64,000 nt of DNA, from the NCBI GenBank assembly GCA_965222375.1, contig CBDCTZ010000016.1, forward strand, positions 2,016,001 to 2,080,000. Direction: 5' to 3'. Positions 1,101 through 29,424 of this stretch are shown piece after piece. A program made the position numbers and the translations under genes. How positions within the stretch are numbered: position 1 is the stretch's first letter; each line of letters opens with the position of its first letter. This DNA comes from Polyangiaceae bacterium (GTDB taxonomy: Bacteria > Myxococcota_A > Polyangia > Polyangiales > Polyangiaceae). The notes under the pieces were generated by a model. It saw only the letters and a list, made by a program, of their open reading frames with translations, ran no database searches and was not told the origin of the DNA.

Positions 1101-1622
1101 ATGGAACGAGAAATGGCGAAAGCGAACATCAGTCGTAGAGCTTTTGGAGCAGTGGTGGGAGCAAGCGCGGCCACCGCCGCAGCGGTGCCCGCGCGTGGAC
1201 AGGGGAGCGCGCCCGCTGTGGCACAACCCGCTGCCGAGCGAACGTCAGATCCATCTCAGCTCCTCGCGCCGCTGAGCGCCGGAGACAAGTTGGGGGCTTG
1301 GCTGGTGATGAGCGTGGGGGAGCTCCACGGCGGAGCTGTGAGCCTCGTGATGCGAGATGCTTCCGGCGAGGACTTTCAGCTCGATGTGTGTGCGCGGGAC
1401 CCGCAGTCGGATGCGCCCTGTGGTCCAAGTCAGACCCAGCGCTTCTGCGTGTACGTAGCGAATTCTGGCAAGGGTGACGTGCCTACGTCTGAAAGCCACG
1501 GGCTGGCCGCCATGGCGATCGCGGATGTGATCCGCAGCAACGAGGCACGGCTGGATGTGTCAGGGTTCTTGCCTCTGCGGGAGCGGGAACGTCGCGGCCT
1601 GGCGCGTCGTCACTTGCGCTAG
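1101..1622 (+). CDS. Hypothetical protein with twin-arginine-like leader (start may be 1113)
   Basis: ISRRAFGAVVGA Tat-like motif; abuts the downstream radical SAM gene. Confidence 0.65.
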   Translation: MEREMAKANISRRAFGAVVGASAATAAAVPARGQGSAPAVAQPAAERTSDPSQLLAPLSAGDKLGAWLVMSVGELHGGAVSLVMRDASGEDFQLDVCARDPQSDAPCGPSQTQRFCVYVANSGKGDVPTSESHGLAAMAIADVIRSNEARLDVSGFLPLRERERRGLARRHLR

Positions 1623-2408
1623 GTGGCGACTGCCGCGGTCCGAAGGGGAGGGGAGTTGCGAAGAATTGAACTAGGCTTCGGGTGCAACAACGCGTGCTTG
1701 TTTTGCGCGCCAGGCAGCTTGCGCGAGGAGCTGCGCAAGATCGCCGAGGAGGTCGTAGACCGGCAGATTGAAGAGGTTGTCACCGGGGATCGCGTGGCCT
1801 TCGTCGGCGGCGAGCCCACTTTGTTCGACCAGCTGGCCAGCTGGGGCACGCGCGTTCGGGAGCGCGGCGCATGGTCTATTCTGGTTCAGACCAACGCGCG
1901 TCGCCTGGCGGTCAAGGGCTACGCGCATTCCCTAGTCGCTTCCGGTATCGACGTGCTGGATGTTTCGCTGCACGGCTGTAACGAGGCGATGCACGATTAT
2001 CACACGGACGTCGACGGCAGCTTTCGCCAGACGGTTGCCGGCTTGCGCCGAGCGCGAGCCGCAGGCCTCACCTTCGGCATCACCACCGTAGTGACCCGTT
2101 CCAACTACCGTCATCTTTCCGAGATCGTGCACGTAGCTCACATGTTGGGAGCGCGCGCGGTGCACCTGCCCGTCGCTGCCCGCAAGGGCTCTGGGCTCGT
2201 CAACTGGCCCAGGCTGCAAGTGGCCCCGGCATTGCTCGAGCCGCACCTCTCTCGCGCCGTAGCGCGGGCGCATTCCCTGGGACTCGTCGTGGTCCGTGGG
2301 GAAAACCTGGGCAAAGCCGGGTCGCCTCAGCTCTTTGCCGGTATGGGACGGGCCCAACCGTCCTCAGCTGAAGGCCTGGCGCAAAGGCACCTGCCCGTCG
2401 CTCGCTAA
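1623..2408 (+). CDS. Radical SAM protein (HxsC-like)
   Basis: CNNACLFC, GGEPT and QTNA motifs. Confidence 0.85.
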   Translation: MATAAVRRGGELRRIELGFGCNNACLFCAPGSLREELRKIAEEVVDRQIEEVVTGDRVAFVGGEPTLFDQLASWGTRVRERGAWSILVQTNARRLAVKGYAHSLVASGIDVLDVSLHGCNEAMHDYHTDVDGSFRQTVAGLRRARAAGLTFGITTVVTRSNYRHLSEIVHVAHMLGARAVHLPVAARKGSGLVNWPRLQVAPALLEPHLSRAVARAHSLGLVVVRGENLGKAGSPQLFAGMGRAQPSSAEGLAQRHLPVAR

Positions 2409-2488
2409 CCGCCGCGGCGTGCGCCTTAGTCAGATCCAGGGTCTGTGTGGCTCGCCGCGGGGGTGCGGCTCTGTTAAATCAGGAACTC

Positions 2489-2989
2489 ATGGCCATCGAG
2501 AACACCACGAGCGAGGACGGGCTCGTCGTCGAATTGGACGAGAGCCTGTACCCCAAGGACGCCGTGTATGGCGCGGCCTATGTCTTCATCGATCGCTGCT
2601 ATGTCAAACTCGATCGCCCCTCGCCAGGCAGGCTCTCGGTGCGCCTGAAGCCCAAGCCGGGAGTGACTCTTTCTGCGGATGCCTTCGCCGGTGAGCTGGA
2701 GAACGAACTTTTGGCGCAGTCTTGGCGCCGAATGATCGTCGACGAAAATCGAAAGCTGATCGAGCAAGTGACGACCCAAGCACTTTCTGGCGCCGCCGGT
2801 CCTCCAGGCCTGGACGATTTGCTCGCCATGGACCTGGACGAAGACACGGCCTTCGAAGACCCCCTCGGCATCGCGATGAGCTGGGAAGAAAAGTACAAGA
2901 AGAAAGAAGCACCAGCGGACCGTGAATCGGAATCGTCCAAAACCCCATCGGAACCGAATGCGGGCAAGAAGGATCCGGAACAACCTTGA
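2489..2989 (+). CDS. hxsD: His-Xaa-Ser system protein HxsD-like
   Basis: LDESLYPKDAVYGAAYVFIDRCYV...GELENELLAQSWRRMI pattern; AGGAA RBS before ATG 2489; radical SAM neighbours. Confidence 0.7.
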   Translation: MAIENTTSEDGLVVELDESLYPKDAVYGAAYVFIDRCYVKLDRPSPGRLSVRLKPKPGVTLSADAFAGELENELLAQSWRRMIVDENRKLIEQVTTQALSGAAGPPGLDDLLAMDLDEDTAFEDPLGIAMSWEEKYKKKEAPADRESESSKTPSEPNAGKKDPEQP

Positions 2990-3201
2990 TGCAGCTCCGC
3001 TTCAAGAAAGAGCTCTATGCGAGCGAGGCTCTGGATCAGGCGCTCGAGGCCTTCGCGGACCACGCCGAGTTGACCCGGAGTGAAAGCGAGACCGAGTGGC
3101 TCGTAGAGCTGAAGGCAGAAGCAGACGAGGCGCTGGTCGCGAACGAGCTGGAGAATTTCGCTCTCGGTTTGACCATCGAGTCCCGAGGGGGACCGAACTG
3201 A
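2986..3201 (+). CDS. Small HxsD-like protein
   Basis: LRFKKELYASEAL...ANELENFALGLTIE resembles the N-terminal half of the upstream gene; overlaps its stop codon. Confidence 0.65.
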   Translation: MMQLRFKKELYASEALDQALEAFADHAELTRSESETEWLVELKAEADEALVANELENFALGLTIESRGGPN

Positions 3202-3226
3202 TTCCCCTGACGGGAGGGAGGGCGCG

Positions 3227-4147
3227 GTGTTGTCTGAGCCCGTGCTGCGCTCGAATTCCTACCACCTGATCCCCATCCGGGACGTTCCTCGGAGCGCTGG
3301 TGAGCCCTGCCCTCTGGTTCAGGATGAGGCCGCGCGCCAGGTGCACAGCCGCGCCCGGACGCTTTGGCTGGTGCTCAAAGATCGGATGCGCCTGTTCGAG
3401 ACCCCCACGCGAGATTTCGCGGAGGACGAACTAGACGCGATCAAGTACTCCAGTGGTCAGATCTACCTAGATGTATCTCGCAAAGCTTCCGTCGACGATT
3501 TCGCTCGGGATCTGAGGCGACTGGCGCCCGCGCAGGAGTGCCGCCGCTGCTCGGCGTTGGAGCAGTGCGCAGGTGCTTACCAGATCAGTCGAGAGCTGGA
3601 CTTTTCTACGGAGGAGGAGCGGCTGCGTCGTGTCCTGGGTGACCTCCGAGGAATCGTTGTCGATCTGGGCTGCGGTCACGCTCCCTACGCCGACTGGCTT
3701 GCGCCGGCGGCGGAGAGCGGACGGTTGCAGTACTTCGGCGTCGAGCCTGACACCGCGGCGCGCCAGCGTTTGGCCGAGCGGCGACCCTGGGCAGAGTTGT
3801 CCCGCGGCCTAGACCAAGCGCCGTCGAGAGTTGACCACGCGTTGCTGCTGCGCAGCATCAATCACCTGTCCGAACCCAAAGCCGTGGTTGCGGACTTGGT
3901 CGCACGCTTGGCGCTGGGCGGCACCCTGTTGATCGTCGACAATGTGGCATTCGGCGTCGTCCGGACTCGGGAGCAAGCACTGCGCGCGGAAACGTCCCCT
4001 GCGCGGTTCGAACACGTCAACAACGCATCGGCGCAGGACATTCAACGACTATTGACCGATCTTCCCTTGGAGTTGAAAGAGCAACATGCCGTCACACCCG
4101 AAACCAGCAATCAATGGATGCTGAGGTACGAGCGCCGCGCCGGCTAG
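3227..4147 (+). CDS. SAM-dependent methyltransferase with N-terminal Cys cluster
   Basis: VVDLGCGHA motif I; CRRCSALEQCAG resembles the C-terminal Cys motif of the neighbouring rSAMs. Confidence 0.75.
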   Translation: MLSEPVLRSNSYHLIPIRDVPRSAGEPCPLVQDEAARQVHSRARTLWLVLKDRMRLFETPTRDFAEDELDAIKYSSGQIYLDVSRKASVDDFARDLRRLAPAQECRRCSALEQCAGAYQISRELDFSTEEERLRRVLGDLRGIVVDLGCGHAPYADWLAPAAESGRLQYFGVEPDTAARQRLAERRPWAELSRGLDQAPSRVDHALLLRSINHLSEPKAVVADLVARLALGGTLLIVDNVAFGVVRTREQALRAETSPARFEHVNNASAQDIQRLLTDLPLELKEQHAVTPETSNQWMLRYERRAG

Positions 4148-4151
4148 TGGT

Positions 4152-5837
4152 ATGCTCGATTCGCGCATGCGACACGACGTGGTGGTCATTGGCGGCGGTC
4201 CTGCAGGGAGCACCGCCGCGGCGCTCCTGGCCAAAGCCGGGCACGACGTGCTGCTCCTGGAAGCAGACTCTCACCCGCGCCCGCATGTGGGCGAGAGCTT
4301 GCTGCCCGGTATCGCACCGATCCTGCAGGAGATGGGCGCCCTCTCCGCAGTCGAATCCGCAGGCTTCGGCCTGAAGACGGGCACGACCCACTGGCAGTGG
4401 GGTGCGACGCGACAGTGGGATCTCTGGTTCCGTGATTCGGACCAGTTCGACCACGCTTGGTTGGTGGATCGTGGGCGCTTCGACAAGATCCTATTCGACA
4501 CTGCGCGCAGCGCCGGTGCGACTGCTCGCGAGCAAACCCGCGTGCGTGAGCCCATCTTGGCGGACGACCGAGTCGTTGGCGTCAAGCTGCGGAGCCGGGG
4601 AGGCGTGGATGATGAAGTTGCTCGCGCTCGCTTCGTCATCGACGCCAGTGGGCAAGCCGCGCTCTTGTCCCGGAAACCGGGAGTCCGCCAGCACGTGGAC
4701 GGCCTGCGGCATCAGGCATCCTGGGCCCACTATGAAAACGCAGGCCGGCTACCGCCGCCCCGGGAAAACCAAGCGCTTTTCGTTGCGGAGCCCGGCTACT
4801 GGCTCTGGTTGTTCCCCTTTGGTCAGGGGCGAGCATCCGTCGGAATGGTGCGACTGGATGGCGCGGAAAACCTTGCAGCGCGGGATAGCGCATTCGAAAA
4901 AGGAATTCTGAGGAGCAAAGCCTTTCGGGATGTGCTGGGGGCCTCGGCCCGCCGCGCCACGCCGATTCGTCACCAGCGCGACTTCAGTTACCGCATGCGG
5001 GAAGTGTCAGGCCCCGGTTGGCTCTCCGCGGGCGACGCTTCCGGCTTCATCGACCCGGTGCTTTCGACGGGAGTCTTCTTGGCCATGCACGCTGGGCGTC
5101 ACTCTGCCAATCTGGTCAGCGACGTACTGCACGGGCGCCGCTCCGAGGAGGAAGCGCTGCTCAACTACTCGACTCACCATCGAGAGCTCTTCGACGATCT
5201 GCTGCGCATGGTTCGCTTCTACTACCAGCAGAATCTGGACAAGAACGACTACTTCTGGGAATCCAAGCGGATCTTGATGCGACAAGACACCGAGCTGAAG
5301 CCTCAGAAGGCGTTTCTGATTCTGACCAGTGGGTTGGTGCGCAATCTAGCGCTGAGCGACGCTGCGCAGCGCGCTCTCGAACAGCGAAAGTGCGCGATCT
5401 CCGGGGGCGCGGAACTGGAGCGATCGCCGTCGGGCAGCGTGAGGCCGCCGCCGGGCAGCGTGAGACCGCCGCCGGGCAGCGTGAGACCGCCGCCGGAGCA
5501 CCTGGGGTTCCTGTGCGTCCACTTGGAGTACGACGATGGCAGTGCGAGCTTGGCTCAATTGTACCTACTGATCGAACCGACGGACCCTGGTGCGCCCAGC
5601 CTGTTTCGCACCGAGCACTTCGACATCAACTGCCTGGCGCCCCGCTACGACAACGACCCGATTTCCCATCCTGCCCTGGAACCTCATCTTCGCTTCCTGG
5701 AGCGCAGAATCCGTCCTCTCGACACGGAAACAACCGACAGCGTGGTGGCGCTCTGGCGCGAAAAGGGCGGAGAGCTCGAGCGGCTTTTTTTGGAGCTACC
5801 CGCGGAGTTTCGGATCAAGCGAGTCTTTGGCGAGTAG
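4152..5837 (+). CDS. Flavin-dependent halogenase-like FAD oxidoreductase with C-terminal extension
   Basis: VIGGGPAG, HVGESL, WLWLFP (WxWxIP-like), GDASGFIDPVLSTGV. Confidence 0.8.
   Translation: MLDSRMRHDVVVIGGGPAGSTAAALLAKAGHDVLLLEADSHPRPHVGESLLPGIAPILQEMGALSAVESAGFGLKTGTTHWQWGATRQWDLWFRDSDQFDHAWLVDRGRFDKILFDTARSAGATAREQTRVREPILADDRVVGVKLRSRGGVDDEVARARFVIDASGQAALLSRKPGVRQHVDGLRHQASWAHYENAGRLPPPRENQALFVAEPGYWLWLFPFGQGRASVGMVRLDGAENLAARDSAFEKGILRSKAFRDVLGASARRATPIRHQRDFSYRMREVSGPGWLSAGDASGFIDPVLSTGVFLAMHAGRHSANLVSDVLHGRRSEEEALLNYSTHHRELFDDLLRMVRFYYQQNLDKNDYFWESKRILMRQDTELKPQKAFLILTSGLVRNLALSDAAQRALEQRKCAISGGAELERSPSGSVRPPPGSVRPPPGSVRPPPEHLGFLCVHLEYDDGSASLAQLYLLIEPTDPGAPSLFRTEHFDINCLAPRYDNDPISHPALEPHLRFLERRIRPLDTETTDSVVALWREKGGELERLFLELPAEFRIKRVFGE
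5425..5496 (+). repeat. 21-bp in-frame tandem repeat x3 (PPGSVRP)
   Basis: CCGGGCAGCGTGAGACCGCCG-type unit three times in the halogenase linker. Confidence 0.9.
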
Positions 5838-8800
5838 GCGCCGGCGCCGTGCGGCGAGCAAGAGCAAGAGCAGCCCGCCCAGGCCCGGCGGCGATGCGGG
5901 GTTACCACCAGCCGACAGCGAGCAGCCGCCGCGCGCGGAGTACTCTTCGCGAATGGGCTCTTCATCCAGGCTCGAGAGGTAAGCGACCAACTCGCGTTGT
6001 TCGCTCTCGGAGAGGCGCGCCACGTTGCCATGGGCCGTGCCTGCTGCCACAGCCGCATCGAGCACGTCGTCCAGGGTCTCAGCGCTGCCGTCATGCAGGA
6101 ACGGTGCGGTGGTCCACATTCCCTTTAACGTTGGTGTGTCCAAACCCTCGAGGGTTTCTCCTAGCCGCATCCCGCTCTGCGCCCCTTGGGTTCCCACGTT
6201 CTCCAGGTTGGCGGCCGCCGAATTGGTCAAGTCGGCTCCGCTGTGACACCGACCGCAGCCCAAGCTCTCGAAATGCCGATGCCCACCGCGTGCAGCGTCG
6301 GACAAGCGACCGTCTGCGGCTCGATGGGGGCTGTCGTACACCCGGTCCAAGGATGAAACGTACGCTGAGAGCGCATCGAGATCTGTGCTCCGCCCGGCCT
6401 TGGGGGTGCCGAGGGTTTCCGAAGTCAACTCGAAGTCTGCGTCAGTAAGCAGACCGGTGCCGCCAAAGGCATTGCGAATGTCGTTTTCGAAATCGTGCAC
6501 TTCGTCGAAGTTGGCGCTCCAGTGCAGGTAGCCCTGGGACGTTCCCGCCTTGCCCAGCAGGGTGATGGTATTACGCAGCCCTTCGCCGCGGTCCATGAAG
6601 TCCCACACTCGCCCATCCTGCTCTCCGTTCAAGTGACAGCTCGCGCAGGACAGGTACTTGTCTCGACTCATGCGGCGGTCGAAGGAGTCGTAGAAAATCT
6701 GCTTGCCGACAAGCACATCCAGCGCCAGTGGCTCGCTTTCGACGGTGCGGGTTTCGAACAAGCGAGCCGCCTGATTACTGCCGGCCAGAACGATTGCAGA
6801 TACGTCGTAGACGTGAAGACTGCGGGAAATGAAGCTGTGCACGTAGAGGGTCTTGCCGTCCTTTGACAGCCGTACAGCGTCTGGAGCCTTTCCGACTTTC
6901 TCGATGCTCGTGATGTGGCTCGCGTCGTAGCTGTCCAGCACCTCGATCGTGTTGGTGCCTTCGGTTGCAACGAAGGCCAGATCCCCCAACGGTGAAATCG
7001 CCACATCCGAGGGCAGGTTGCGATCGTTCAGGTCTCGTCGCAGCGAGAGGTCTTCGCTGCCGTCGCTCTTCACCTGGGCTACCACAGCGCGCACGGTGCT
7101 CTCGAAGGTCAGGTTGTTTCCATCCTGCCAGAAGCCGCGCCCGGTATTGTCCTTCTTTGCGGGCACGAAGGCTCGTGTCCCGTCCGGGGAGATCGCCGGG
7201 GAGCGCAGGTAGTTCAAGACTCCGCGCCCGCTGGCTTCGGTGTCCGGGCCCAAGTCCATTGCCAACTCGGACGTGCGCTCGACCGCGAAGTCCATGGCGT
7301 TCACCAAGTAGATCTCCGCATGCTCGGCGGGTGAGATGAATCGCGTCACCCAGACCGTCGCGCCATCCGCCGACACGGATAGGCCTCGGGGCTGCGCCCC
7401 GAGCGACAGCTTCCGGCGCAGCGCACCGGTCACTGGATCGAGTTCGGCTAGCTGTCCAGTCGCGTACAGGGTGACGTAGGCCGCACTGCCGTCAGGCGCG
7501 AAAGCGAGCCCCGCCGGCCGCGTGCCCCGACCCAGATTGACGGTTTCCGTGTTGCCACCCGCATCCAAGATGCTCAGGGTTGACGAGCGTTCGCTCACCA
7601 CCCAAGTTCTTCCGTCGGCGCCAAGGGCAACCGCGCGCGGCTCTGCGCCCACTGGGAACTCCCGGTCCAAGGTGCCGGTCGAGAGGTCCACTCGGCTGAC
7701 GCTGCTCGAATCTGGATTGGCGACCCAAGCAACCTGTTTGGCCTCATCGACGAACAGCCCGCTGCTCTTGGTTGGAAGGCTGGAGGTCAACGGACGGTGT
7801 GCCGTGAAGGGCGCGGCACACGCAGTCAGCAAGCTGCCGTCCTTTTCGATGCGAACCACGACCGTGTAGTGGCCAGGACTGTCGAAAGCATGGGTCGCTT
7901 GCTTGCCGGCTTGTGGCGCGCTGCCGTCTCCGAACACCCAGGAGAAACTCAAGTCGCCGCCGGCAGGGGTGCTCACGTCGAAGTTGACCGCCGCGCCCAC
8001 TTCGCTAGCCCCCAAGCTATCCACTTCGCACAACGGATTGTCGATGGCGTTGCCCGTGGAAAACTGTGACAGAAAGGTCTCGGCGAGGGGGTTGCCGGCG
8101 GCGTCGCGGGCGCCGCCCTTCTCCAGTCGGACCTCGTAGGATTGATTGGGCTTCCAAGGAGATGTTGGTGCGAAGCTGAGGAAGTTGGACTGATAGCTCA
8201 TGATGCCATCTACCGGCGCCCCACCGACCTCGCGCACCACGAAGTTCTGCTCGGTTATCGAGCTGAAGTCGAGTTGATCGGTGAAAGACAGTCCGACTCG
8301 TGACGTCACTGCGACACCCAATGAACCCGCGGGAGGCTCCGCACGGTTGACGACTGGCGGCGTAGTGTCCGGTTTGGCTTGGTGGGGTGTGATGTGGGTG
8401 CCCTTGCCGTGGTCGTCGCTAATGAACACCAGGTTGCCAAACACGTTCGCGAAGTCCTCGTCACGACCGCTCAGTTCGCTCGACGCGGAACCGACGATCG
8501 GGAACATGGGCTTCTGTTTCAAGTCGACTTTGAAGTAGCGCTTTGACCCGCCAATGTGCGCAAAGCCATCTTGAACGGTGATGTAGGCTCCGCGACCGTT
8601 GAACTGCTCGCTTCGCCCCGCATCCGGGATCTGCCCTGGCTTGGACACGTCGACCGCGACGACGCGTCCAGCAGTGCCGGCTCCAAGTAGCAGGTCCCCG
8701 TTCCAAATTCCGGCGTAGACTTTGTCGACATCGTCCTTGCGAGCGACCAACAATTGGGGTCGCACCGGATCGGTGATGTCGACCATGGCAAAACCCTGTT

Positions 8801-9497
8801 GGTCCATCGCTGTGATGGCCAGCTGGTTGCCCAATGCGAATACCGGCCCCGTCTTGAAGGCACCGAGGCGGCCAATGGGCACCGGGTTGTCGCTGCCCGC
8901 GGGCACTTCCGACAGTTTGGCTTTGGCGGGGTTGGCGGCATCCACGATGTACAGACCATTGCCCGATCCACCCACGTAGACATGGGTGCCTTGCCAAAAA
9001 GTCCACCAGGCTCCGGTGCCGTAGTCGCTGTCCGTGATGCCGGGCAGCTTCAAATACTTCACGAGTTTGGGTTGTGTGACGTCGGTCCAATCCCAGAACT
9101 GCACGCCAAAGGATGCCTGCAGCACGATGTAGTCCCGCCCGCCGATGCGGCTGACACCGAAACCGTGCGCTTCTCGGATGTCTTCGGTTTCCGCATCATC
9201 CTTGGCGAATACCAGCTTGGGGTTGCGCGGGTCGGATACATCGTAGAACGCAAAACCGCCGTCACCCTCTCCCGAGTCCTTGGAGAAGATCACAGCGAGA
9301 TAGCCGTTGTGCATCACCAAGGTGCCGTGGGCGCGTGGTGCGCCGAGAGCACCATCGATGCGGCCGATGATCTGAAAGACTTCGGCCGCGGGGTAACTCT
9401 GGTTTGCCAGACCGGGGCCGGCCGCGTGGAGCCCGGAACTGACCAGAGCGCCACCCAGCGCACCTGCCAGGCTGAGGCTGAGAGCTGCACGTCGCAT
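5796..9497 (-). CDS. Surface protein: LVIVD repeats, Ig-like (Big_5), PKD, YVTN beta-propeller, di-heme cytochrome c, MYXO-CTERM
   Basis: Signal peptide MRRAALSLS; FSWVFGDG (PKD); CASCH and CGRCH heme motifs; TPTLKGMWTTAPFLHDGS; C-terminal GGCS..LLLLLLAARRRR. Confidence 0.8.
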   Translation of the reverse strand: MRRAALSLSLAGALGGALVSSGLHAAGPGLANQSYPAAEVFQIIGRIDGALGAPRAHGTLVMHNGYLAVIFSKDSGEGDGGFAFYDVSDPRNPKLVFAKDDAETEDIREAHGFGVSRIGGRDYIVLQASFGVQFWDWTDVTQPKLVKYLKLPGITDSDYGTGAWWTFWQGTHVYVGGSGNGLYIVDAANPAKAKLSEVPAGSDNPVPIGRLGAFKTGPVFALGNQLAITAMDQQGFAMVDITDPVRPQLLVARKDDVDKVYAGIWNGDLLLGAGTAGRVVAVDVSKPGQIPDAGRSEQFNGRGAYITVQDGFAHIGGSKRYFKVDLKQKPMFPIVGSASSELSGRDEDFANVFGNLVFISDDHGKGTHITPHQAKPDTTPPVVNRAEPPAGSLGVAVTSRVGLSFTDQLDFSSITEQNFVVREVGGAPVDGIMSYQSNFLSFAPTSPWKPNQSYEVRLEKGGARDAAGNPLAETFLSQFSTGNAIDNPLCEVDSLGASEVGAAVNFDVSTPAGGDLSFSWVFGDGSAPQAGKQATHAFDSPGHYTVVVRIEKDGSLLTACAAPFTAHRPLTSSLPTKSSGLFVDEAKQVAWVANPDSSSVSRVDLSTGTLDREFPVGAEPRAVALGADGRTWVVSERSSTLSILDAGGNTETVNLGRGTRPAGLAFAPDGSAAYVTLYATGQLAELDPVTGALRRKLSLGAQPRGLSVSADGATVWVTRFISPAEHAEIYLVNAMDFAVERTSELAMDLGPDTEASGRGVLNYLRSPAISPDGTRAFVPAKKDNTGRGFWQDGNNLTFESTVRAVVAQVKSDGSEDLSLRRDLNDRNLPSDVAISPLGDLAFVATEGTNTIEVLDSYDASHITSIEKVGKAPDAVRLSKDGKTLYVHSFISRSLHVYDVSAIVLAGSNQAARLFETRTVESEPLALDVLVGKQIFYDSFDRRMSRDKYLSCASCHLNGEQDGRVWDFMDRGEGLRNTITLLGKAGTSQGYLHWSANFDEVHDFENDIRNAFGGTGLLTDADFELTSETLGTPKAGRSTDLDALSAYVSSLDRVYDSPHRAADGRLSDAARGGHRHFESLGCGRCHSGADLTNSAAANLENVGTQGAQSGMRLGETLEGLDTPTLKGMWTTAPFLHDGSAETLDDVLDAAVAAGTAHGNVARLSESEQRELVAYLSSLDEEPIREEYSARGGCSLSAGGNPASPPGLGGLLLLLLAARRRRLLAKDSLDPKLRG

Positions 9498-9581
9498 CGG
9501 CGCGCCGGAAAATAGCACCTCGAACGGTGCAGGCGCCACGCCGGGCTTCTGACGCATCGGGTCAGATAGGAAAAGTGACGC

Positions 9582-11960
9582 TCAAGCTACGCGACCGGCG
9601 TACTCGGGAGGCGCAGAAAAGCTCTGTTGCACGTCAAAGCCGACCCAACGGACGCGCGCATCGCCGTCTTGAACCGGATCCGGCAGAGCCAGGGCGCGCT
9701 CGATCACGTAGTCCTGCGCTCGACGCAGGTCCTCGGTCGACATGGTCGGTGTTTGAGTCACCCGGTAGTACCGCTCGTCGTCGACGCCCAAGCGGTGCAG
9801 TCTCCGACGTAGGTGAAGTTCCGTGCCGGGAAGCACGAGCAGGCGATTGACCACGACGCGGGCAGAGCCAAGCTCCAGGGTCCGATCGAAGGTCTGCTTG
9901 AAGGACTGGAGTGTCTCGCCGGGTAGTCCCAGAATCAGCGACAGCTCGAGAGGGCCGACCCCCTCGAAGACTTCAACCGCCCGAGCCAAATGCGCCATGC
10001 GGGTCCCCCGCTTGATGGGCGCAAAGGTCTCCGGAGTCAGGGACTGAACCCCGAAATGCAACGCACCGACGGGCACGCCACTCAGAGCTTCTCGCTGCGC
10101 TGGTCGGGCCAGAGATGGGTAGAGTTGGAACCCGTAGCGCAGTTTGCCCTTCGGGTCTCCGTTCCGAATCGCTTCGCAAACCCGCGCGAAGGCCTGGTCT
10201 GTCACGTTGGCGGTGCTGGCCCCTGCGTCCAACCATTCGGACTCGGGCCATGCAACGACCGCCGCCACCTCGGCCGCAAGCCGCTCTTGGCTTCGCATCT
10301 GCATGCGACCCTCTCGGCTCTGTTTGGCGTCGCTGCAGAACGTGCAACTGAAAGTGCAGCCTCGCGCCATTTCTATCGTGGGGCGAGCCACGCGATACAG
10401 GGTGCCCATCAAATAGGGTGACGGAAAATCGTCCAATTCTGGGACGCGAGCCTCCGGGCCGAACTCTGGCGTGCCATCGATCACGCGGACGAGGCCAGGC
10501 ATCCCCTTGGGGATACTTCGACGGCCCTTTTGCCCAATGAGCGCTTGGGTCAAATCGATCAACGTGTGCTCGCCGGAGCCGCGTGCGATGGCGTCGACCG
10601 CGTCCCACCACGAGAACCAGCTGGCATCCCGATGCAGGAAGGCGAAAGAGACGCCGCCCCAAAGGATGGGCGCTTCGAGCCCCTGGGACTTGAGCAAGCG
10701 ACTCACCCGCCCGCACTGCCCTAGGTTCCAGCTGTACGCCGACATTCCAACGAGATCTGGCTGCGCTTCTGCAATGGAGGCCGCGGCCGCCTCCGCCGAA
10801 AGGCCAACCAAGAACAAGATGTCGACGTCGACCGTGTCCGCGAGCTCCGGCTGCGACAGCACCGCTGCCCGCAGGTACTCGCTGGCCCCCGGACCATAGC
10901 CCCAAGTGGCTTCGGACAGGTTCACGAGGACCAAGCGAAAACGACCGGCGCGCCGGGTCAGCTTGCGTTTGTGAAATCTCGCAAGGGCTTCGGGTTCGTT
11001 TGCCCGCCTCCGGCTTGGAGCAACGGGTTGGGACAGGGGTGAGAGTCCACTGCTGCCGTGGCGCTGCAGGTACCAGGTTGGCAAGCCGCCGCAGCGAGGA
11101 GCTTCCGCACACGTGGTGCACTGCTGACCCATTCGCGCCGGATCTCGGCTTGCTGCGGGCAGCGCAACGTGGCGGTCGCTGCGCGCTGCTTCTGGAAGCG
11201 CGCATGGTGGAATGCCGCAATTCGGCAACAGCTGAATCTGGATCGAGAGCCGCTGTGCTTCCTCGAAGGCCGCTGCGAGGCGAGGGCGCAGTCGGCTGAG
11301 ATCTTCGGGTAGGTACTCGCTGGCTTCTGCCGCGGGAGGGATGCCGGAAGGGAGTAGAAGTTCGACTCGGTGTAGCTTTCTGGCGCGGGCGTGGGTTTGG
11401 CGAAGCAGCGCGGCTAGATCCTGTTTCTTGGCGGACAACAACGGGACGCGCAGTGAGAGCTCGAAGCCCGCCCGCGCCGCTTGGTCCAGGCCCTGGAGCA
11501 TCCGAGCGTGGGCGCCCTTGCGACCGGTCACGACGTCGTGGACTAGAGGATCCAAGGAATACGCGCTGAGGATGACCTCATCGAGCCCCGCTCGAGCTAG
11601 CGCTTCTGCCGCACCGGACGCCCCAAGGCGGACTCCGTTGGTCTCGACGGCAACGTGCACGAATCCACGCCTCTTGGCATCGGCGATGATCGTCGTGAGG
11701 TCCGGACGCCTGAGCGGGTCACAACCCAGCACCCGAAGTTGGCTGCTGTCGCCGCTCGGCATAGGCGACGGCTGCGCCACATCGGCGGGTTTCGATCGGG
11801 AGCAGAACCAGCACGCGAGATCACACTCGGCGACAAGGCGCATGCTCTCGACGCGATTGCCCGACACGGCCTGAGCATAGCGCGAGGACTCGGGTCGTCC
11901 TCGCAGCTTTCGCGCGAATGCCCGCCGCCTGGACAAATCGGGCTCGGGTCTCGGCGGCAA
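9582..11960 (-). CDS. Fusion of an HxsC-like radical SAM and a B12-binding radical SAM
   Basis: CDLACWFC, CTTCAEAPRCGG, then PDLVGMSAYSWN..ILWGG (B12-binding-like) and RGCTFSCTFC. Confidence 0.8.
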   Translation of the reverse strand: MPPRPEPDLSRRRAFARKLRGRPESSRYAQAVSGNRVESMRLVAECDLACWFCSRSKPADVAQPSPMPSGDSSQLRVLGCDPLRRPDLTTIIADAKRRGFVHVAVETNGVRLGASGAAEALARAGLDEVILSAYSLDPLVHDVVTGRKGAHARMLQGLDQAARAGFELSLRVPLLSAKKQDLAALLRQTHARARKLHRVELLLPSGIPPAAEASEYLPEDLSRLRPRLAAAFEEAQRLSIQIQLLPNCGIPPCALPEAARSDRHVALPAASRDPARMGQQCTTCAEAPRCGGLPTWYLQRHGSSGLSPLSQPVAPSRRRANEPEALARFHKRKLTRRAGRFRLVLVNLSEATWGYGPGASEYLRAAVLSQPELADTVDVDILFLVGLSAEAAAASIAEAQPDLVGMSAYSWNLGQCGRVSRLLKSQGLEAPILWGGVSFAFLHRDASWFSWWDAVDAIARGSGEHTLIDLTQALIGQKGRRSIPKGMPGLVRVIDGTPEFGPEARVPELDDFPSPYLMGTLYRVARPTIEMARGCTFSCTFCSDAKQSREGRMQMRSQERLAAEVAAVVAWPESEWLDAGASTANVTDQAFARVCEAIRNGDPKGKLRYGFQLYPSLARPAQREALSGVPVGALHFGVQSLTPETFAPIKRGTRMAHLARAVEVFEGVGPLELSLILGLPGETLQSFKQTFDRTLELGSARVVVNRLLVLPGTELHLRRRLHRLGVDDERYYRVTQTPTMSTEDLRRAQDYVIERALALPDPVQDGDARVRWVGFDVQQSFSAPPEYAGRVA

Positions 11961-13639: not shown

Positions 13640-13692
13640 CGCCCGTGGCACTAACTCTGACGGGCCCGCTGTCGCGCGCTAAGGTTGCGCCC

Positions 13693-14690: not shown

Positions 14691-14694
14691 AGCC

Positions 14695-19510: not shown

Positions 19511-20749
19511 GTGGCCTACGACCGAGATGCGTTCATCGAGGACTTCTTGGCGGCTCAGCCGTCGGCGCATGTCTTCCAGGGCTTTCGCATCAGCCGCGTC
19601 GAGCCCGACCGCGTGCGTCAGGCCCTCGACGTCGAGCTGACCCACGACGATGGACGCGCACTCGTCTTGTTTCTCGAGCGTCGAGTTCCCGGTCGCGAAG
19701 CGCTGGCTACGACGGAGGCGCTGTCCGTCTCCTACTATCCTTCTCGAGAGGTCAGCGACGCCGAGGCCGCACAGCTGGGGCGAGCGTTTGCGTCCTTCCT
19801 TTCGCAGCGCGAGAAGGCGTTGGGGCCGGAAGCGGCACAGCGCACCCTGCGCCTGGGGGTGCGCCAGGGCACTCCGGATCGCTGCTTGGAATTGCGCATC
19901 AATCGCGAGTGCAACGAGCAATGCGTGTTCTGCAACACCCCCGAAGATTCCGAGACGATCTTGCCGGGCCCTGCGGCGATTGAAGACGCCTTGCGGGTCG
20001 AGCAGGCCGCTGGTCACAGCAGTGTCTTGTTCACCGGGCGCGAGCCAACTCTGGAACCAAGGCTACTCGGCTACGTACAGTTGGCGAAGTCTCTCGGATA
20101 CTCCCGCATCCGCGTCCAAACCAACGGAACCCGACTGGCCGACGAGGGTTTCTTGCGCAAACTGCTGAACGCGGGCGTGACGGAATTCGAGATCTCATTG
20201 CACACTCTGCAAGTCGCGACCTTCGAGCAGCTCGTCGGGAAGCGGTCCCTGTTGCTCAAGACCGAAGGCGGAATCGGCGCTGTTCTTCGAGCAGGGGCGC
20301 GGCTTCATCTGGTCACCGTCGCCACCACGCAGAACCTGCATGAGTTGCCAGACATGCTGCGGACTCTGGGCAAGCGCTACGCGGGCCGTCTGCGCCACCT
20401 GACTCTGAGCCCCATGGCACCGGTCGGGGACGGCGAGCAGCGCCTGGACCTGATTCCCCGATTTTCGAAGCTGACCCAGTCGCTGCCCAAGATCGTTGCT
20501 GCCGCCCGCGAGGCGCAAATTGACCTGGAGATCCCCTCCCGCTGCGGGCTACCCCTGTGCGTGACGCCGCCGGAGCTGCGGAGTCTCAATCTGGAAGCCA
20601 AGAACACGCCGGGCCTGACCCTCGAGACCGGCAAGCACAAGCCGCCCCAGTGCAGCCAGTGCCGCTTTGATGCGGTGTGCACCGGCGTGTGGTCGGCCTA
20701 CCTCGATCGCCACGGTAGCGACGAATTGGTCGCCGTGCCCGCGAGCTAG
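19511..20749 (+). CDS. Radical SAM protein (HxsC-like) with N-terminal extra module
   Basis: CNEQCVFC, TGREPT, QTNG, CSQCRFDAVCTG; GTG start inferred. Confidence 0.85.
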   Translation: MAYDRDAFIEDFLAAQPSAHVFQGFRISRVEPDRVRQALDVELTHDDGRALVLFLERRVPGREALATTEALSVSYYPSREVSDAEAAQLGRAFASFLSQREKALGPEAAQRTLRLGVRQGTPDRCLELRINRECNEQCVFCNTPEDSETILPGPAAIEDALRVEQAAGHSSVLFTGREPTLEPRLLGYVQLAKSLGYSRIRVQTNGTRLADEGFLRKLLNAGVTEFEISLHTLQVATFEQLVGKRSLLLKTEGGIGAVLRAGARLHLVTVATTQNLHELPDMLRTLGKRYAGRLRHLTLSPMAPVGDGEQRLDLIPRFSKLTQSLPKIVAAAREAQIDLEIPSRCGLPLCVTPPELRSLNLEAKNTPGLTLETGKHKPPQCSQCRFDAVCTGVWSAYLDRHGSDELVAVPAS

Positions 20750-24597: not shown

Positions 24598-26289
24598 CTA
24601 GTCTGCGGGCGCTTCGCTTCCCATACTAAGCAGCTCGCGCAAGCTGACGGCGGCGAGTTCCTCCAGGCCGAACTTGTCGGCGTACGCTCGCAGCACTTCT
24701 CGGGGGCAATGAGCGGAAAGAGCACAGTCCGCAACGTGAGGGCAGGCCACGGCAGACGCGACGAAGGCGTCATGCTGTTCTGCCGCCTCGGAGTGCGAGT
24801 AGGCGCCTTCGGTGTATTCGCGCCCGGGCAGCCCGCGCATTTGCGCGCTGTGCGCCAAGAAGGCGTCCAAGCCGTGGCCACCCTGCGCCAAGCGACGCGA
24901 CGTGACGCACGCGGGTAGGCCATCAACGAAGACCGCAGCGTCTGTGGTGATCGTAGACTTCGCGATTTCGGAGAAACTGGCGGCGCATTCTCCAAACCGG
25001 TCTGTTGGCAACTCGCTGGATGGGTACGGCGTCGCAATGCGCAGCCGGAGTCCCCTTCGCGTCGCGAAATCCTGTAATTGCTGTAGTCCGCCGAGGTTGC
25101 CTCGAACGGCGACGCTGCTCAGCGTCACGCGGACGCTCGGAAGCGTGCCAAGCACGTCCAACGCGCGCAGGACGCGTGCGTGACTCCCACTCGTGCCCGT
25201 GACGCGATCGTGTACCGCGGCGGCGGCAGCGTAGAGGGGAACGAAGACTTCCGTTTCGGGGAGCGCTGCAAAGAGCTGCTGGGCAAAGCCTGCATCTTCC
25301 AGGCGGGTGCAAGGTGAATACAGAGCAACCTCGCGAAAACCCAGTCGGGTGATGCTTTGAGCTAGGTCGAGGATGCCGTCGAGGGCCAAGGGGTCGTAGC
25401 CGTTCAAGCGCAGTTTTCGAATGCCCTGCGCTGCGGCGTTTTCCAGGTCCCGCAACAATGCGGTGGTCGGCAGTTCGTGAGACGCCCACGCTGGGGATAG
25501 GTCCTTCACCGAACAGAACGTGCATGCTTGCCCGCATTCCGCGTCGATAGCCAAGTTCAGCCACTCGGAGCTGCCCCTGACCACGGGTAGCTGGTGCGTG
25601 GTGGGGGCCAGGGCGTTCGCTTCCGGGAAATGCACGCGCAAGTTTGGGCCGTCTCGCAGGCTGAGATGGGTAGCCAGCCAGGTAACCAGAAGTTCCGCCT
25701 GCGCGGGGACTTCGCCCCGATTGGTCAAGTAGGAAATGGAAAAATGGCTGGTCTGAGCGAAGCTGCGAGCGGCGCTCTTCGCCGCAATTTCGACGCGCAA
25801 GGTGCTGCCCGTGTCGTGTTCGAAGTTCAGCTCCAAGGCCAGCTGCATCGCTGCGGTCGCCCGCGACGATGGCACCACGCCCTTTAGCCTCCAACCGAAG
25901 GGCGCCGGCGCCGTCAAAGTAAGCTCAGGCCCGAGTAACTCGAGCAAGCTCTGGGGGGACAGCTCCATTTCCGTCCCAGCTTTCGGTCCGTAGAACAGCA
26001 GCGAAGTCAGGGGTGCATCCTCGGCGTCCAGAGCGTCTTCGATCTCTTGCGCCAAACCACCCGCGAGGGAGAGCAGGGCGGCATGTTCCGCGGCTTCCAA
26101 CTGCTCCGGGGCCGAGAGGCGCGCGCTGACCCGCGTGCCGCAAATCGCGTCACCCCCCACTCCCGGGGTGCGCACGGTGATGCGCTGGCGCTTCCCAGCC
26201 TCGGAGCAGAACTCGAAGTTCAGAACGTCCGCCCGGCCCGCCACCTGCAGTAGCACCCAACCAGGGGTGGGCTCGAGCTTGGTCAGCAC
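24598..26289 (-). CDS. Radical SAM protein with long N-terminal extension
   Basis: CGQACTFC; GTG at 26289 overlaps the upstream TAG (start inferred). Confidence 0.8.
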   Translation of the reverse strand: MLTKLEPTPGWVLLQVAGRADVLNFEFCSEAGKRQRITVRTPGVGGDAICGTRVSARLSAPEQLEAAEHAALLSLAGGLAQEIEDALDAEDAPLTSLLFYGPKAGTEMELSPQSLLELLGPELTLTAPAPFGWRLKGVVPSSRATAAMQLALELNFEHDTGSTLRVEIAAKSAARSFAQTSHFSISYLTNRGEVPAQAELLVTWLATHLSLRDGPNLRVHFPEANALAPTTHQLPVVRGSSEWLNLAIDAECGQACTFCSVKDLSPAWASHELPTTALLRDLENAAAQGIRKLRLNGYDPLALDGILDLAQSITRLGFREVALYSPCTRLEDAGFAQQLFAALPETEVFVPLYAAAAAVHDRVTGTSGSHARVLRALDVLGTLPSVRVTLSSVAVRGNLGGLQQLQDFATRRGLRLRIATPYPSSELPTDRFGECAASFSEIAKSTITTDAAVFVDGLPACVTSRRLAQGGHGLDAFLAHSAQMRGLPGREYTEGAYSHSEAAEQHDAFVASAVACPHVADCALSAHCPREVLRAYADKFGLEELAAVSLRELLSMGSEAPAD

Positions 26290-27938
26290 TAGCGTTGTCC
26301 CCGAATCGCGCTGGAGAGTCCACCGCGTGCCGCTCGCCAAATGTCTTCCGCCACGGCCAAAGACAGTTCCGCGCGCTGCCTCAAGCCTTCGAAACGGGAC
26401 TTGTCCGTGCCGGCAAGAAGCCTTTCGCACTCCGCTGTCCGCTGGCGACAGCGCGCCAAGAGCTCGCTTCGTCTGACGCCCACGGCGCGCTCGAAGTCGT
26501 CCGGTGTACTTAGATGTTCCCAGACTTCGCGGCACACCTGTGGCAAGTCTTCTTCGTAAAAATCGACCAGGGGCAGCAGTGCGTCTTTACGCCCCGCATT
26601 CTTGCAGCGGCGCAGAGTCGGCTCCGCGAGAGCGCCGAGCTCCGAGATCTGTGCGACGGGCATGCGATGGGTCAGCAAGACGTGTACGGACATGTCGTGT
26701 CCAACGACGGCGAGGTGTTCACACCAGAAACGATTCGGGACCCGCAGCGCGAGCTTGCGTGCGTGCCTGGCGTAGAATGCCGCGGCCCCGACATTGATGC
26801 CGATGCTGCCCTCGACATAGAGATCCAGCCAGCTGCGCGGGTCGACGCGGTAATCATCCACGGGCATCAGCCGAGCGCGAAAGCCGGTGTTCAGCACGTC
26901 CATTTCGACGAGTAGCCGGCGGAGAGTTTCCGGGGTCGGTACTGTGCGCACCAGGCCGTCCTCTTCCACAAAGTAGCCCAGAGCGCGAAGGTAGTCCGAA
27001 AGAACGCGTCGCTGTAGGAAAGGCTCCGGCGCCGCAAGAAAGTAACTCGGCCCTGTGGCGAGCCGGGAAGGTATGGGTGCGAACAGGACGCGGAGCGCCG
27101 AGCGTGGCGCTTCGAAATACTCCGCGTGACACCGGGCTCCGAAATACTCGCTGGCCGCTGTGAGGGTGGGCTGCAGTAGCGAAAGTTCCTTGCTCAGCGC
27201 TTCGTCGTCGGGAGCTTCCACCCTTCGGAGTTTGCGTTGCGGGCTCCACGGCCCGGAGTTGGATGAGGTACGCGACGGAAAAGACAGCTGAGTTTCGCGC
27301 AGGGTCAGCGCCAGGGCACAAAGCTGAGCTAGGGCGCACAGCTCTGGTCTGGCCTCGTCCTCTTCCGGGCCGAGGGTCTGCATGGATATCGAGAGCCTGT
27401 CGGATCGCAGCATCGCGCGCCGGGCGTGACCCCGTGCGATGCCGAGAAGTACGCGGCAGCGGGAGCCTTTCGCTCCGAACTCGATCGTCAGCACGTCGCC
27501 AGACCGAAATACGTCGGAGATTTCGGAGCCCTTTGGCAGGTCCGTGGTCATCATTTCAGCGAGCAGGGCGCGCACGCCCTTTGGGGCAAAGTCGAATTTC
27601 CGATCACCCGGGCAGCCGGCGAGCCCCTGGGGGAATCGTGCGGTGTCGGTTTGGGTCAGCCAATCGTCGACACTGCTGCCAACGACTTGCATCAGTTCGG
27701 CAGCGTTCGCACGATGCTCCAAGTTGCCAGTTGGCAGCTCGGCCTCGTAGAACAAAGACACGTGCCTCAGCCGCGCTATCTGCCGATCTAGCGAGGTCGC
27801 GGGCATCACGATCACTTTCACGTGACCGGCCCCGTCCGTGGCGTCATAGCGCAACACGAGTCGGTCCGAACCGTCCTGCCGCACGCCAGCCAGGCGAAAG
27901 CCGTCAGATGCGAAGGGGATCCCAAGCAGTGTAGACAT
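26289..27938 (-). CDS. Hypothetical protein (549 aa)
   Basis: Long ORF coupled to the rSAM gene; HDMSVH possible metal-binding motif. Confidence 0.6.
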   Translation of the reverse strand: MSTLLGIPFASDGFRLAGVRQDGSDRLVLRYDATDGAGHVKVIVMPATSLDRQIARLRHVSLFYEAELPTGNLEHRANAAELMQVVGSSVDDWLTQTDTARFPQGLAGCPGDRKFDFAPKGVRALLAEMMTTDLPKGSEISDVFRSGDVLTIEFGAKGSRCRVLLGIARGHARRAMLRSDRLSISMQTLGPEEDEARPELCALAQLCALALTLRETQLSFPSRTSSNSGPWSPQRKLRRVEAPDDEALSKELSLLQPTLTAASEYFGARCHAEYFEAPRSALRVLFAPIPSRLATGPSYFLAAPEPFLQRRVLSDYLRALGYFVEEDGLVRTVPTPETLRRLLVEMDVLNTGFRARLMPVDDYRVDPRSWLDLYVEGSIGINVGAAAFYARHARKLALRVPNRFWCEHLAVVGHDMSVHVLLTHRMPVAQISELGALAEPTLRRCKNAGRKDALLPLVDFYEEDLPQVCREVWEHLSTPDDFERAVGVRRSELLARCRQRTAECERLLAGTDKSRFEGLRQRAELSLAVAEDIWRAARGGLSSAIRGQR

Positions 27939-28132
27939 CCCGGGATCCGAGTGTAGCAGGTTGTCGATCGCGTCACATTCGGGGAGCTAGAGGAGTCCGA
28001 CGGCGGCAATGCCGATCTGATCCGAACTGACCCAAGGCACGACAGCGACGTTGCGCTCTTCCAGTATGCCTGTGCCGAAAGCGCACGGATTGTCAGCGCA
28101 GCGTCAGTGTCCCGTCACCGCTTGGCTCGTTT

Positions 28133-28378
28133 TCAAGCGTGCCGTCGCTGCTGCGCGTCAGCTTCGTCCCGCTTCACTACGCGGTTGCCAAACTCCGGGG
28201 GTGGTGCCGTGTGCACCGGTGTTTCCTCCGCTTTGGGCCCTCCGCCGCTGATGGGGTTCGCGGGTTTCGGTGGTGGCGGGCGAGGTGGCGGAGGAGCCGC
28301 GCAGGCGACGGCCACTAGCGCGGAGCTGCTCGCCGCCACGATGCTCGTGAGCCAGCCTTGTCGCCGCGTGACGTCCAT
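28133..28378 (-). CDS. Small Pro-rich lipoprotein
   Basis: MDVTRRQGWL..LVAVAC lipobox followed by a Pro-rich segment. Confidence 0.5.
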   Translation of the reverse strand: MDVTRRQGWLTSIVAASSSALVAVACAAPPPPRPPPPKPANPISGGGPKAEETPVHTAPPPEFGNRVVKRDEADAQQRRHA

Positions 28379-28404
28379 GGGGTCTCCTTGGCCTACTCTG
28401 AAAG

Positions 28405-29424
28405 CTACTCGGCAGCGCTCCGGAGCACCGGAGCGAACTCGTCCCAGCCAAACCGCACTAGGTAGTTCTTCCAAACGCCTTCACACTGGGATTCGTAGCG
28501 GCAGTCGGCGCACTCGCCGCGCTTCTCGCGTTCTGCGTCGTCCAGGTCCGAGCGCATCACCATCAGCAGCTTCTTGCCCCCACCCTCTCCGCGACGCTCG
28601 ACCTTCTTGTCTACCGGCAACTCGACTCGACTCTCTAGATCGTAGTGCCGGTACTTCTCGACGTAACCGCGGTTGAAGTCCGGGATTTGCTCGGTCGTGC
28701 ACAGGGGGATGTCCACGAGAAATGCCATCGGCTGCGGCTCTCGCAAGCTGTCGAGGCAGCGCCGGAATTTGGCTGCGGTTTCCGTATATGAAGCGAAAAG
28801 CTGTTCGAAGTAGGTATGCGCCCGGCCGTTGGCTTGCATGACATTGAAGACCACCTGGTCCACTCCCTGGCTGCGCAAGAAGCTGTAGATCTCTGCCATA
28901 TGAGGCAGGTTGCGCTTGGTCAGCACCGTTGAAGTGTGCAACTCCACGCCGTAGGGTTTGAGTCGCGCGGCGCTCTTCAGGCCTCCGACGGTTTGCTCGA
29001 AGCTGCCGGGGGTGCGAGTCAGCCCCTCGTGGAGCGCCTTTTCATGACCGTGGATTGAAATGTAGACGCGGTTTAACCCACGTTTGGCCAGAGCCGCCGT
29101 GTAGGGCAGGTGACTCATCCGCCGGCCGTTGCTCATCACACTGATGAGCCGGTATCCGAGTTCCTTCGCCCAGCCTACGAACATCGGGAAGTCATCGCGC
29201 GTGGTGGGTTCCCCACTCGTGAAGCAGACTTCCTCGTAGCCTCTGTGTTGCTCCAGCACCCAGCGGACCCGCTCGGGGGTCATGGCGGAGTTGTTGATGT
29301 AGCGACCCTCGCGGTCCTCCTCCATACAGAAGATGCAGTTGTTGTTGCACACGGCCCCAATCGGAACGTGGAGCCGCTCTGCGCGCTTCTCGATGCGCTT
29401 GGCGATGTCGCGCTCGCTAGCCAC
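28405..29424 (-). CDS. Radical SAM protein (HxsC-like)
   Basis: CNNNCIFC, SGEPT, DIPLC, CADCRYESQCEG; start inferred. Confidence 0.85.
   Translation of the reverse strand: MASERDIAKRIEKRAERLHVPIGAVCNNNCIFCMEEDREGRYINNSAMTPERVRWVLEQHRGYEEVCFTSGEPTTRDDFPMFVGWAKELGYRLISVMSNGRRMSHLPYTAALAKRGLNRVYISIHGHEKALHEGLTRTPGSFEQTVGGLKSAARLKPYGVELHTSTVLTKRNLPHMAEIYSFLRSQGVDQVVFNVMQANGRAHTYFEQLFASYTETAAKFRRCLDSLREPQPMAFLVDIPLCTTEQIPDFNRGYVEKYRHYDLESRVELPVDKKVERRGEGGGKKLLMVMRSDLDDAEREKRGECADCRYESQCEGVWKNYLVRFGWDEFAPVLRSAAE

Follow-up and report, generated by a model that had tools for sequence, protein, structure and literature searches.

The question raised by this locus is what a large set of modifying enzymes can act on when no substrate gene stands among them. 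The window, that is the whole 64,000-nucleotide stretch analysed (G000:C16:2016001-2080000), belongs to a Polyangiaceae genome of 10.6 Mb in 16 contigs, 98% complete. G000 denotes this source genome and C its contigs, whereas the other G labels denote genomes of an order-wide sample and L labels extracted loci. Between positions 1101 and 29424 an earlier note had recognised a Hxs-related cluster of radical S-adenosylmethionine (rSAM), halogenase and methyltransferase genes and had proposed an expanded pathway with an unknown substrate. The first half of that proposal is borne out by order-wide co-occurrence and by the HxsA4/HxsC4 gene set. The second half does not hold in that form: the substrate is identifiable rather than unknown, since a precursor gene and HxsB genes are present elsewhere in the genome. 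Judging from sequence comparison, the window is probably the largest piece of a dispersed HxsA4-type maturation system, whose enzymes would, with a stand-alone HxsB as partner, act in trans on a precursor from contig C11.

The genes on which this reading is built were examined individually. Each of the seven rSAM open reading frames (ORFs; starting at 1623, 9582, 12006, 14629, 19511, 24598 and 28405) was present and scored above the PF04055 gathering threshold; they hold nine rSAM domains, the products of 9582 and 14629 being tandem proteins. The two HxsD-like genes passed their family cut-offs, the halogenase-like gene was found at 4152 and the three class-I methyltransferases at 3227, 12830 and 14052, and the DUF483-like gene was also present, with 22.8 bits (under the cut-off of 25). 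All the genes named in the earlier note showed a codon-position GC content typical of coding DNA. Independent contigs from two public runs cover positions 11000-30000 piecewise with zero listed indels, none of them spanning the whole stretch, and a promoter and terminator scan gave a result at chance level. A quick tree of the 54 rSAM cores of the genome united seven window domains and eight others in one group (SH-aLRT, the approximate likelihood-ratio support, 83). The CxxC-x5-CxG motif said to be common to several rSAMs was seen in 9582 (N domain), 12006, 19511 and 28405, and also at the start of methyltransferase 3227; it is absent from rSAMs 1623 and 14629. This motif alone is not diagnostic, because six further rSAMs of the genome that fall outside the tree group contain it as well. 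The core genes of the window and the features between them are the following:

1101..1622, + strand: protein with a twin-arginine translocation (Tat) signal, core component (SRRAF motif; shared domain of ~100 amino acids (aa), beta4-alpha)
1623..2408, + strand: HxsC-like rSAM without the C-terminal auxiliary-cluster motif (PF04055; adjoins the Tat gene and hxsD in relatives)
2489..2989, + strand: HxsD (TIGR03976, 53.3 against a cut-off of 50)
2989..3201, + strand: HxsD-like protein (NF038315, 66.1 against 41)
3202..3226, no strand: empty precursor slot of 25 bp (occupied by hxsA4 in G189, locus L031, and in G098, locus L214)
3227..4147, + strand: four-Cys domain plus class-I methyltransferase, core component (68/71 against 2/130 genomes)
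28405..29424, - strand: HxsC4 (NF038332, 569.6 against 500; single copy in the genome)

In no frame of window positions 1-32000 were two or more consecutive His-x-Ser (HxS) triads found, and no window gene reached the HxsB cut-off in a profile search, in agreement with what had been reported from the letters alone. A six-frame scan of the whole genome (212,309 stop-to-stop frames, at least three tandem HxS) returned four frames, two of them spurious-looking and the other two encoding HGS-repeat peptides on contigs C11 and C14. The first of these is the proposed substrate:

C11:423875-424180: HxsA4 precursor of 101 aa, leader-QHCS(HGS)15W (NF038313, 87.7 against 55)

This peptide contains 16 His-x-Ser repeats and has no adjoining Hxs gene. 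Its 49-residue core is devoid of Lys and Arg, the maximum hydropathy of 0.52 reveals no signal, no peptidoglycan-binding domain is present, and the only Pfam match is Collagen (34.8, above 27.2). HGS peptides of this kind are nearly uniform, with pure HGS after the first triad in 34/35, an invariant Cys and 5 to 53 triads, most having 10-18. Very long cores were seen in G135 (53 triads, L211:10115-10750) and in G115 (at least 39 plus 24 triads, divided by a locus boundary, L212/L213). The GTG start of the C11 gene is preceded, at 6 nt, by a TATGCT hexamer, which might mean a leaderless transcript. Directly after this orphan hxsA4, an MbnH/MauG-like di-heme lipoprotein is encoded (L156:1823-2980; C11:424227-425384); the same pairing was found in G172 (77%) and was not detected in G144 or G132.

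HxsB is represented by three copies above 370 bits, none in the window. The stand-alone genes C3:34541 and C16:1535512 are 50-68% identical to the system-linked HxsB of relatives, versus 42-48% for the copy on C14. With HxsC4, HxsD, HxsD-like, HxsA4 and HxsB above their cut-offs, the genome contains all five members of the NCBIfam HxsA4 set (NF038332, TIGR03976, NF038315, NF038313 and TIGR03978), spread over at least three contigs. The C14 copy of hxsB is part of a second HxS locus (C14:1206746-1224190, mostly L015) with an aKG-HExxH gene, an rSAM, a Tat gene, hxsD, a small ORF, hxsB, a peptide and three rSAMs. The peptide of this locus (C14:1220766) has seven HxS triads ending in HGQW and lies below the HxsA4 cut-off.

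Synteny in relatives shows where a precursor would be expected. The genes hxsD-(D-like)-hxsB-hxsA4-hxsC4 are contiguous in L036, L038, L039, L041, L047 and L051, and L148 has the order Tat-rSAM1623-hxsD-hxsB-hxsA4-hxsC4. G189 reads clpB-Tat-rSAM1623-(MopE-motif gene)-hxsD-hxsD-like-hxsA4-methyltransferase, with the peptide of G098 in the same slot. The window keeps the G189 order, but only 25 bp separate hxsD-like from the methyltransferase gene, and the leaders of G189 and G098 share 73% and 61% identity with that of C11, compared with 20-41% for most others. Most window genes stand together in one cluster in G172. The operon head is located behind clpB in six family relatives, which suggests vertical inheritance; the named relatives of the window HxsC4 are Polyangiaceae, Sandaracinaceae and Nannocystaceae records. 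Among 80 named loci (ten of them repeating genomes of the G set), an HxS run was present in the flanks of 27, HxsB in 16 and the methyltransferase in 15. Of 59 HxsC4 genomes, a count that leaves out G117, 31 had the peptide adjacent to HxsC4 and 5 had it within 25 kb; in 19 it was remote or lay on a different contig, and in 4 it was not found. Dispersal is thus common and not peculiar to the source genome, because the peptide is distant in 19/59.

Further orthologues of the relatives' cluster genes are scattered in the source genome, at C16:2004298, C16:2137743, C14:914795 (68%), C16:2319773 (49%) and C14:1206746 (47%); the last is the aKG-HExxH hydroxylase-like gene near the C14 locus, whose family recurs in 10 related loci. 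The gene at C16:2137743-2142269 is an open frame of 1508 aa that holds several rSAM domains together with two auxiliary motifs and resembles 14629 at 29%; related genes lie near hxsC4 in L042 and L079. The one at C14:914795, like L150:14067-15356, encodes a highly conserved HxsC-like rSAM that was found in 14 related loci and is an orphan in the source genome.

Co-occurrence was analysed in 201 genomes of the order at least 80% complete, the system being scored by HxsC4 or the pattern QHCSHGSHG (overlaps counted by hand). HxsC4 matched 60/201 and the pattern 67/201 (both 56, HxsC4 only 4, peptide only 11, neither 130), giving 71/201 system genomes and 130/201 others. Methyltransferase 3227 was present in 68/71 system genomes and 2/130 others, and the Tat protein in 44/71 and 3/130. 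Eight window genes were nearly confined to system genomes, which argues against a set of unrelated genes that do not co-occur. The counts for HxsC4, the peptide, rSAM 12006 and methyltransferase 3227 include G117 as one system genome, and no claim depends on it. For 9582 and the DUF483-like gene a chosen subset of 40 system and 40 other genomes was used, and the linkage of rSAMs 1623 and 19511 was judged by synteny only. HxsC4 occurs as a single copy in all 60 order genomes carrying it. In a phylum sample it matched 25/191 genomes, 10 of them above the cut-off; a divergent HxsC4-like group (phylum family f38, ~265-345 bits) was found in 10/11 genomes, often in two copies. Zero plasmid matches to HxsC4 were obtained at 1e-30, and two viral-contig matches to the pattern contained neither an HxS ORF of at least 60 aa nor a system gene.

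The accessory genes and their neighbours are listed below, with counts given as system against other genomes:

4152..5837, + strand: flavin-dependent halogenase, accessory (halogenases in PDB, best E 1.9e-71; 11/71 against 1/130)
5796..9557, - strand: Ig/PKD/beta-propeller/di-heme peroxidase-like protein of 1253 aa (LVIVD/Big_5), link uncertain (one foreign orthologue, 66%, G144 cluster)
9582..11960, - strand: tandem HxsC-like rSAM plus B12-binding rSAM, accessory (PF02310, 40.4 against 32.1; TokK and CysS matches)
12006..12911, + strand: HxsC-like rSAM, accessory (28/71 against 5/130)
12830..14690, + strand: methyltransferase 12830, DUF423 protein and methyltransferase 14052, probable passengers or lineage-specific
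14629..17031, + strand: tandem cobalamin-type rSAM plus HxsC-like rSAM, accessory (23/71 against 1/130)
18695..19468, - strand: DUF483-like protein (conserved CC plus HxxCxxxC; often beside the 14629 orthologue; 15/40 against 0/40)
19511..20749, + strand: shared domain plus HxsC-like rSAM (orthologues in L028, L185 and L190)
24598..26535, - strand: two shared domains plus HxsC-like rSAM (25/71 against 1/130)
26289..27938, - strand: two shared-like domains plus a C-terminal domain with conserved HDxxxH (three foreign orthologues, all adjoining hxsC4)

The membership of the cluster as it had been drawn held for most of these genes. It did not hold for methyltransferase 12830, which has no orthologue in the foreign loci searched; that of methyltransferase 14052 was found only in G172, and those of DUF423 in G172 and L083. 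Among the rSAM genes, at window positions 17072-18676 and 20991-24577, lie a Cys-rich lipoprotein gene, lspA, a MarR-like ORF, an ECF sigma factor gene, a FecR-like gene and a gene for a secreted protein. Zero orthologues of the lipoprotein, lspA, sigma, FecR and 23540 genes were found in the foreign loci compared. Methyltransferase 12830, lspA, sigma/FecR and the lipoprotein look like passengers. Farther along, the window contains a fragmentary zinc domain of an IS91-type transposase, along with a large serine recombinase (34286-36811), and 19-30 kb upstream of the window there are a Cas4-Cas1 fusion (L012:7315-9210) and a long CRISPR-like repeat array (~C16:1988500-1997400).

Several of the enzymes could be assigned to a type. 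In methyltransferase 3227 the residues C28, C105, C108 and C114 are invariant, and the protein is fused behind an HxsC-like rSAM in 22/33 foreign copies. The idea that rSAM 1623 or C3:12251 is its detached N-terminal half was unsupported, the best match in the genome being 32%. Halogenase 4152 has the signature motifs of flavin-dependent halogenases (GxGxxG, the catalytic Lys and a WxWxIP-type motif), its Lys and its WLWLFP motif aligning with those of 8ZOP and 3E1T. The protein stays under the CmlS and QhpG family cut-offs, and a QhpG/LodB-type quinone-cofactor role was put aside in view of the better scores of halogenases and the alignment of both motifs (Lys and Trp). At ~5430-5500 a 7-residue Pro-rich unit is repeated three times in tandem in the linker before the C-terminal domain, and it is absent from the aligned tails of orthologues. 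Protein 9582, with two CxxxCxxC motifs and a B12-binding domain, is predicted to be of the cobalamin-dependent rSAM type (B12-binding Rossmann domain before the rSAM barrel); it matched 4/40 system and 0/40 other genomes, three of the four in the B12 half only. Protein 14629 has a C-x27-CxxC set besides CxxxCxxC, invariant in 9/9 sequences. Its N-terminal part (model confidence, pLDDT, 81) matched OxsB, TsrM and TokK in Foldseek with E ~1e-10, so that 14629 is, by predicted fold, the second tandem rSAM of the cobalamin type in the window. The C-terminal domain of 26289 gave zero matches in the ESM Atlas or in a search of shorter proteins.

The domain of the Tat-signal protein recurs in several of these enzymes. 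RR motifs were read by eye in many homologues of the protein, the model of its mature part (pLDDT 92) consists of four strands and one long helix, and the ESM Atlas gave a lead of 0.81 to a 'twin-arginine signal family'. Profile comparison related its domain to N-terminal segments of 24598 (two), 19511, 26289 (two) and the SPL-like rSAM C16:2319773; with hhalign the six best pairs reached 93-97%, against at most 3.2% in the reversed control. The C-terminal extension of the halogenase is partly like this domain (78% and 52%). When the profile of the SPL-like copy was run over 45,746 genome frames, the two Tat proteins ranked first after the copy itself (E 2e-6 and 3e-6), followed by 24598, C5:151619 and 19511 at E ~0.05. 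Fold searches with the modelled domain gave no Foldseek match at E <= 0.001 and a best VIA Z of 5.3, with no PqqD, the winged-helix fold of a RiPP recognition element, among the matches listed; they establish neither a known nor a new fold. New here are the Tat-signal protein that tracks the system, the ~100-aa domain common to it and several tailoring enzymes, and the tandem cobalamin-type rSAM 14629.

The window core genes very likely serve the C11 peptide, and most of the accessory genes probably do so as well. The precursor would be matured in trans by the window enzymes and by HxsB from C16:1535512 or C3:34541. By analogy to E. coli HXS, in which processing and a +8 Da change on SHRSS depend on each of HxsB, HxsC and HxsD (PMC13128918), HxsB, HxsC4 and the HxsD pair may bind the leader and carry out the modification of the H-x-S triads. 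The modification would most likely be a radical His-to-Ser crosslink repeated along the core, again by analogy, the rSAM MicB introducing a -2 Da crosslink on a His-Ala-Ser motif (minviopeptin cyclophane, PMC12912966); a crosslink as the core chemistry is a tentative proposal. Domain content suggests that methyl groups would be added by the four-Cys methyltransferase and by both cobalamin-type rSAMs, that the other HxsC-like paralogues may add further radical steps and that halogenase 4152 may halogenate His or the terminal Trp. A docking role of the shared domain on the peptide is a speculation prompted by the occurrence of this domain in several tailoring enzymes of different kinds. The free copy with the Tat signal might then carry the signal-less product to the periplasm, where a His-dense product might serve as an envelope barrier or metal binder. 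The boldest version, a machine with at least 16 HxsC-like rSAM domains that would write a lineage-specific pattern of crosslinks, methyl groups and halogens on a near-invariant (His-Gly-Ser)n, with docking by the shared domain and export of the hitchhiker product by the Tat copy as a split, two-part HXS effector, we consider quite unlikely.

Several observations weigh against the C11 peptide as the common substrate of these enzymes and against the proposed chemistry. The second HxS locus, on C14, encodes a peptide of its own, which might be the substrate or share that role. None of the accessory genes is present throughout (halogenase 11/71; 9582 4/40), and the co-occurrence counts are descriptive, given the kinship among genomes and the fragmented state of many assemblies. 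The support for the HxsC-like clade is weak (SH-aLRT 83 in a quick tree). Some pairs of the shared domain did not align (g1-g2 0.03%, Tat-g1 0.19%, halogenase tail-Tat 9.9%), and a leader peptidase was not identified. The E. coli change was detected on one repeat only and corresponds to +C/-4H, which is no simple -2H crosslink (PMC13128918).

Other explanations concern what the product does. The system might serve in defence against phages, as E. coli HXS does, with the Tat protein and the modified peptide together taking the place of the signal-bearing HxsA effector; this we regard as rather doubtful. HxsB and HxsD families and HxS repeats are common to both, a Tat-signal protein is conserved, the distribution is patchy (71/201) and an HXS phenotype has been described (PMC13128918). 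A defence role is weakened, in turn, because the peptide lacks basic residues, a signal and a peptidoglycan-binding domain, because of the position behind clpB and because the neighbourhoods are not those of defence genes: PADLOC matched 2 among 55 scanned of 69 candidate neighbours, both generic (kinase, RecD-like), in a scan run without a control set, and on the system genes it gave only generic rSAM-type and oxidoreductase matches. The single copy of HxsC4 in all 60 genomes and the zero plasmid matches also speak against it. It is unlikely that the product is a metal-binding peptide, a store or scavenger of Cu, Ni or Zn in which the modifications tune the 16 His and the invariant Cys, even though the His are evenly spaced, the di-heme gene follows the peptide in the source genome and G172, and proteins with a putative MopE metal-binding motif are encoded inside the operon in G193 and G189. 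The di-heme neighbour scored 216 versus an MbnH cut-off of 363 and stands beside the peptide only in those two genomes, no recurrent metal transporter was recognised among the neighbour families, and MopE-motif proteins are common in myxobacteria. Still less probable is a structural product, a (Gly-Ser-His)n read as Gly-X-Y repeat and crosslinked into a rigid rod or fibre of envelope or matrix. The near-invariant Gly at every third place, the Collagen match and lengths of up to 53 triads would suit it, but Gly spacing alone explains that match, the core has no Pro and most cores are of 10-18 triads.

The remaining alternatives concern which enzymes belong together. Only HxsB, HxsC4, HxsD, HxsD-like and the four-Cys methyltransferase might modify HxsA4, the accessory rSAMs and the halogenase acting on other substrates such as envelope proteins with the shared domain. 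The variation of accessory sets between genomes beside a near-invariant core peptide, and the few distinct residue types it offers to at least 16 HxsC-like domains, favour this division of labour; against it, accessory genes hardly ever occur where the system is missing and turn up repeatedly beside hxsA4 and hxsC4, and we hold the division to be not very likely. That unrelated genes have come together here by chance is highly improbable and largely refuted for ~12 linked genes by co-occurrence and synteny, with most genes retained in one cluster in G172, even though the strands are mixed and the passengers lack orthologues in foreign loci.

The dispersed system encoded in part by the window was finally compared with known ones. 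E. coli HXS resembles it in HxsB, an HxsC-type rSAM, HxsD and an HxS-repeat substrate, but E. coli HxsA has ~214 aa, a signal peptide, a domain for binding peptidoglycan, plus five basic repeats, whereas the proposed substrate here is a 101-aa leader-(HGS)n-W peptide (PMC13128918). In that study more than 99.8% of systems have four genes and 99.7% occur in Pseudomonadota, and its main text does not contain 'Myxococc', 'halogenase' or 'methyltransferase'. The C11 peptide is not an HxsA of the E. coli type, with signal and peptidoglycan-binding domain; the best HxsC score (TIGR03977, model run on window proteins) among the window rSAMs was 91 versus a cut-off of 267.9, and instead of a four-gene hxsD-B-C-A operon the genes lie on C16, C11 and C3. 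The system is thus not of the E. coli type, yet by analogy it may work alike. Triceptides such as minviopeptin offer a motif precedent only, an rSAM crosslinking a His-x-Ser triad, and differ in having cores with few, varied motifs and in needing one rSAM (PMC12912966). In PMC9062424 HxsB/C are mentioned only as annotated clusters. A literature search, outside which subscription papers and supplements lay, found no paper naming HxsC4, NF038332 or NF038313 or describing the accessory set. The Tat protein, four-Cys methyltransferase, tandem cobalamin rSAMs, DUF483-like protein, halogenase and shared domain reach no Hxs-specific NCBIfam cut-off. Polytheonamide-type proteusins presumably provide a further parallel, with a repetitive core and several iterative rSAMs including cobalamin-dependent methyltransferases; compared by description only, they presumably differ in leader and core.

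The five core families are already catalogued in NCBIfam, and the system is a dispersed, heavily expanded variant of that set. On His-x-Ser chemistry, the E. coli study found the +8 Da change and failed in its reconstitution (PMC13128918). This chemistry becomes directly testable here, because HxsA4 is short and uniform and its core genes are carried by genera in culture (Polyangium, Chondromyces, Minicystis, Nannocystis and Enhygromyxa, by record titles). The four-Cys methyltransferase, the Tat protein, the shared domain and the tandem cobalamin rSAMs are tracked, unnamed components that define the gene set needed. The lesson is that myxobacterial rSAM clusters without a precursor are to be read genome-wide.

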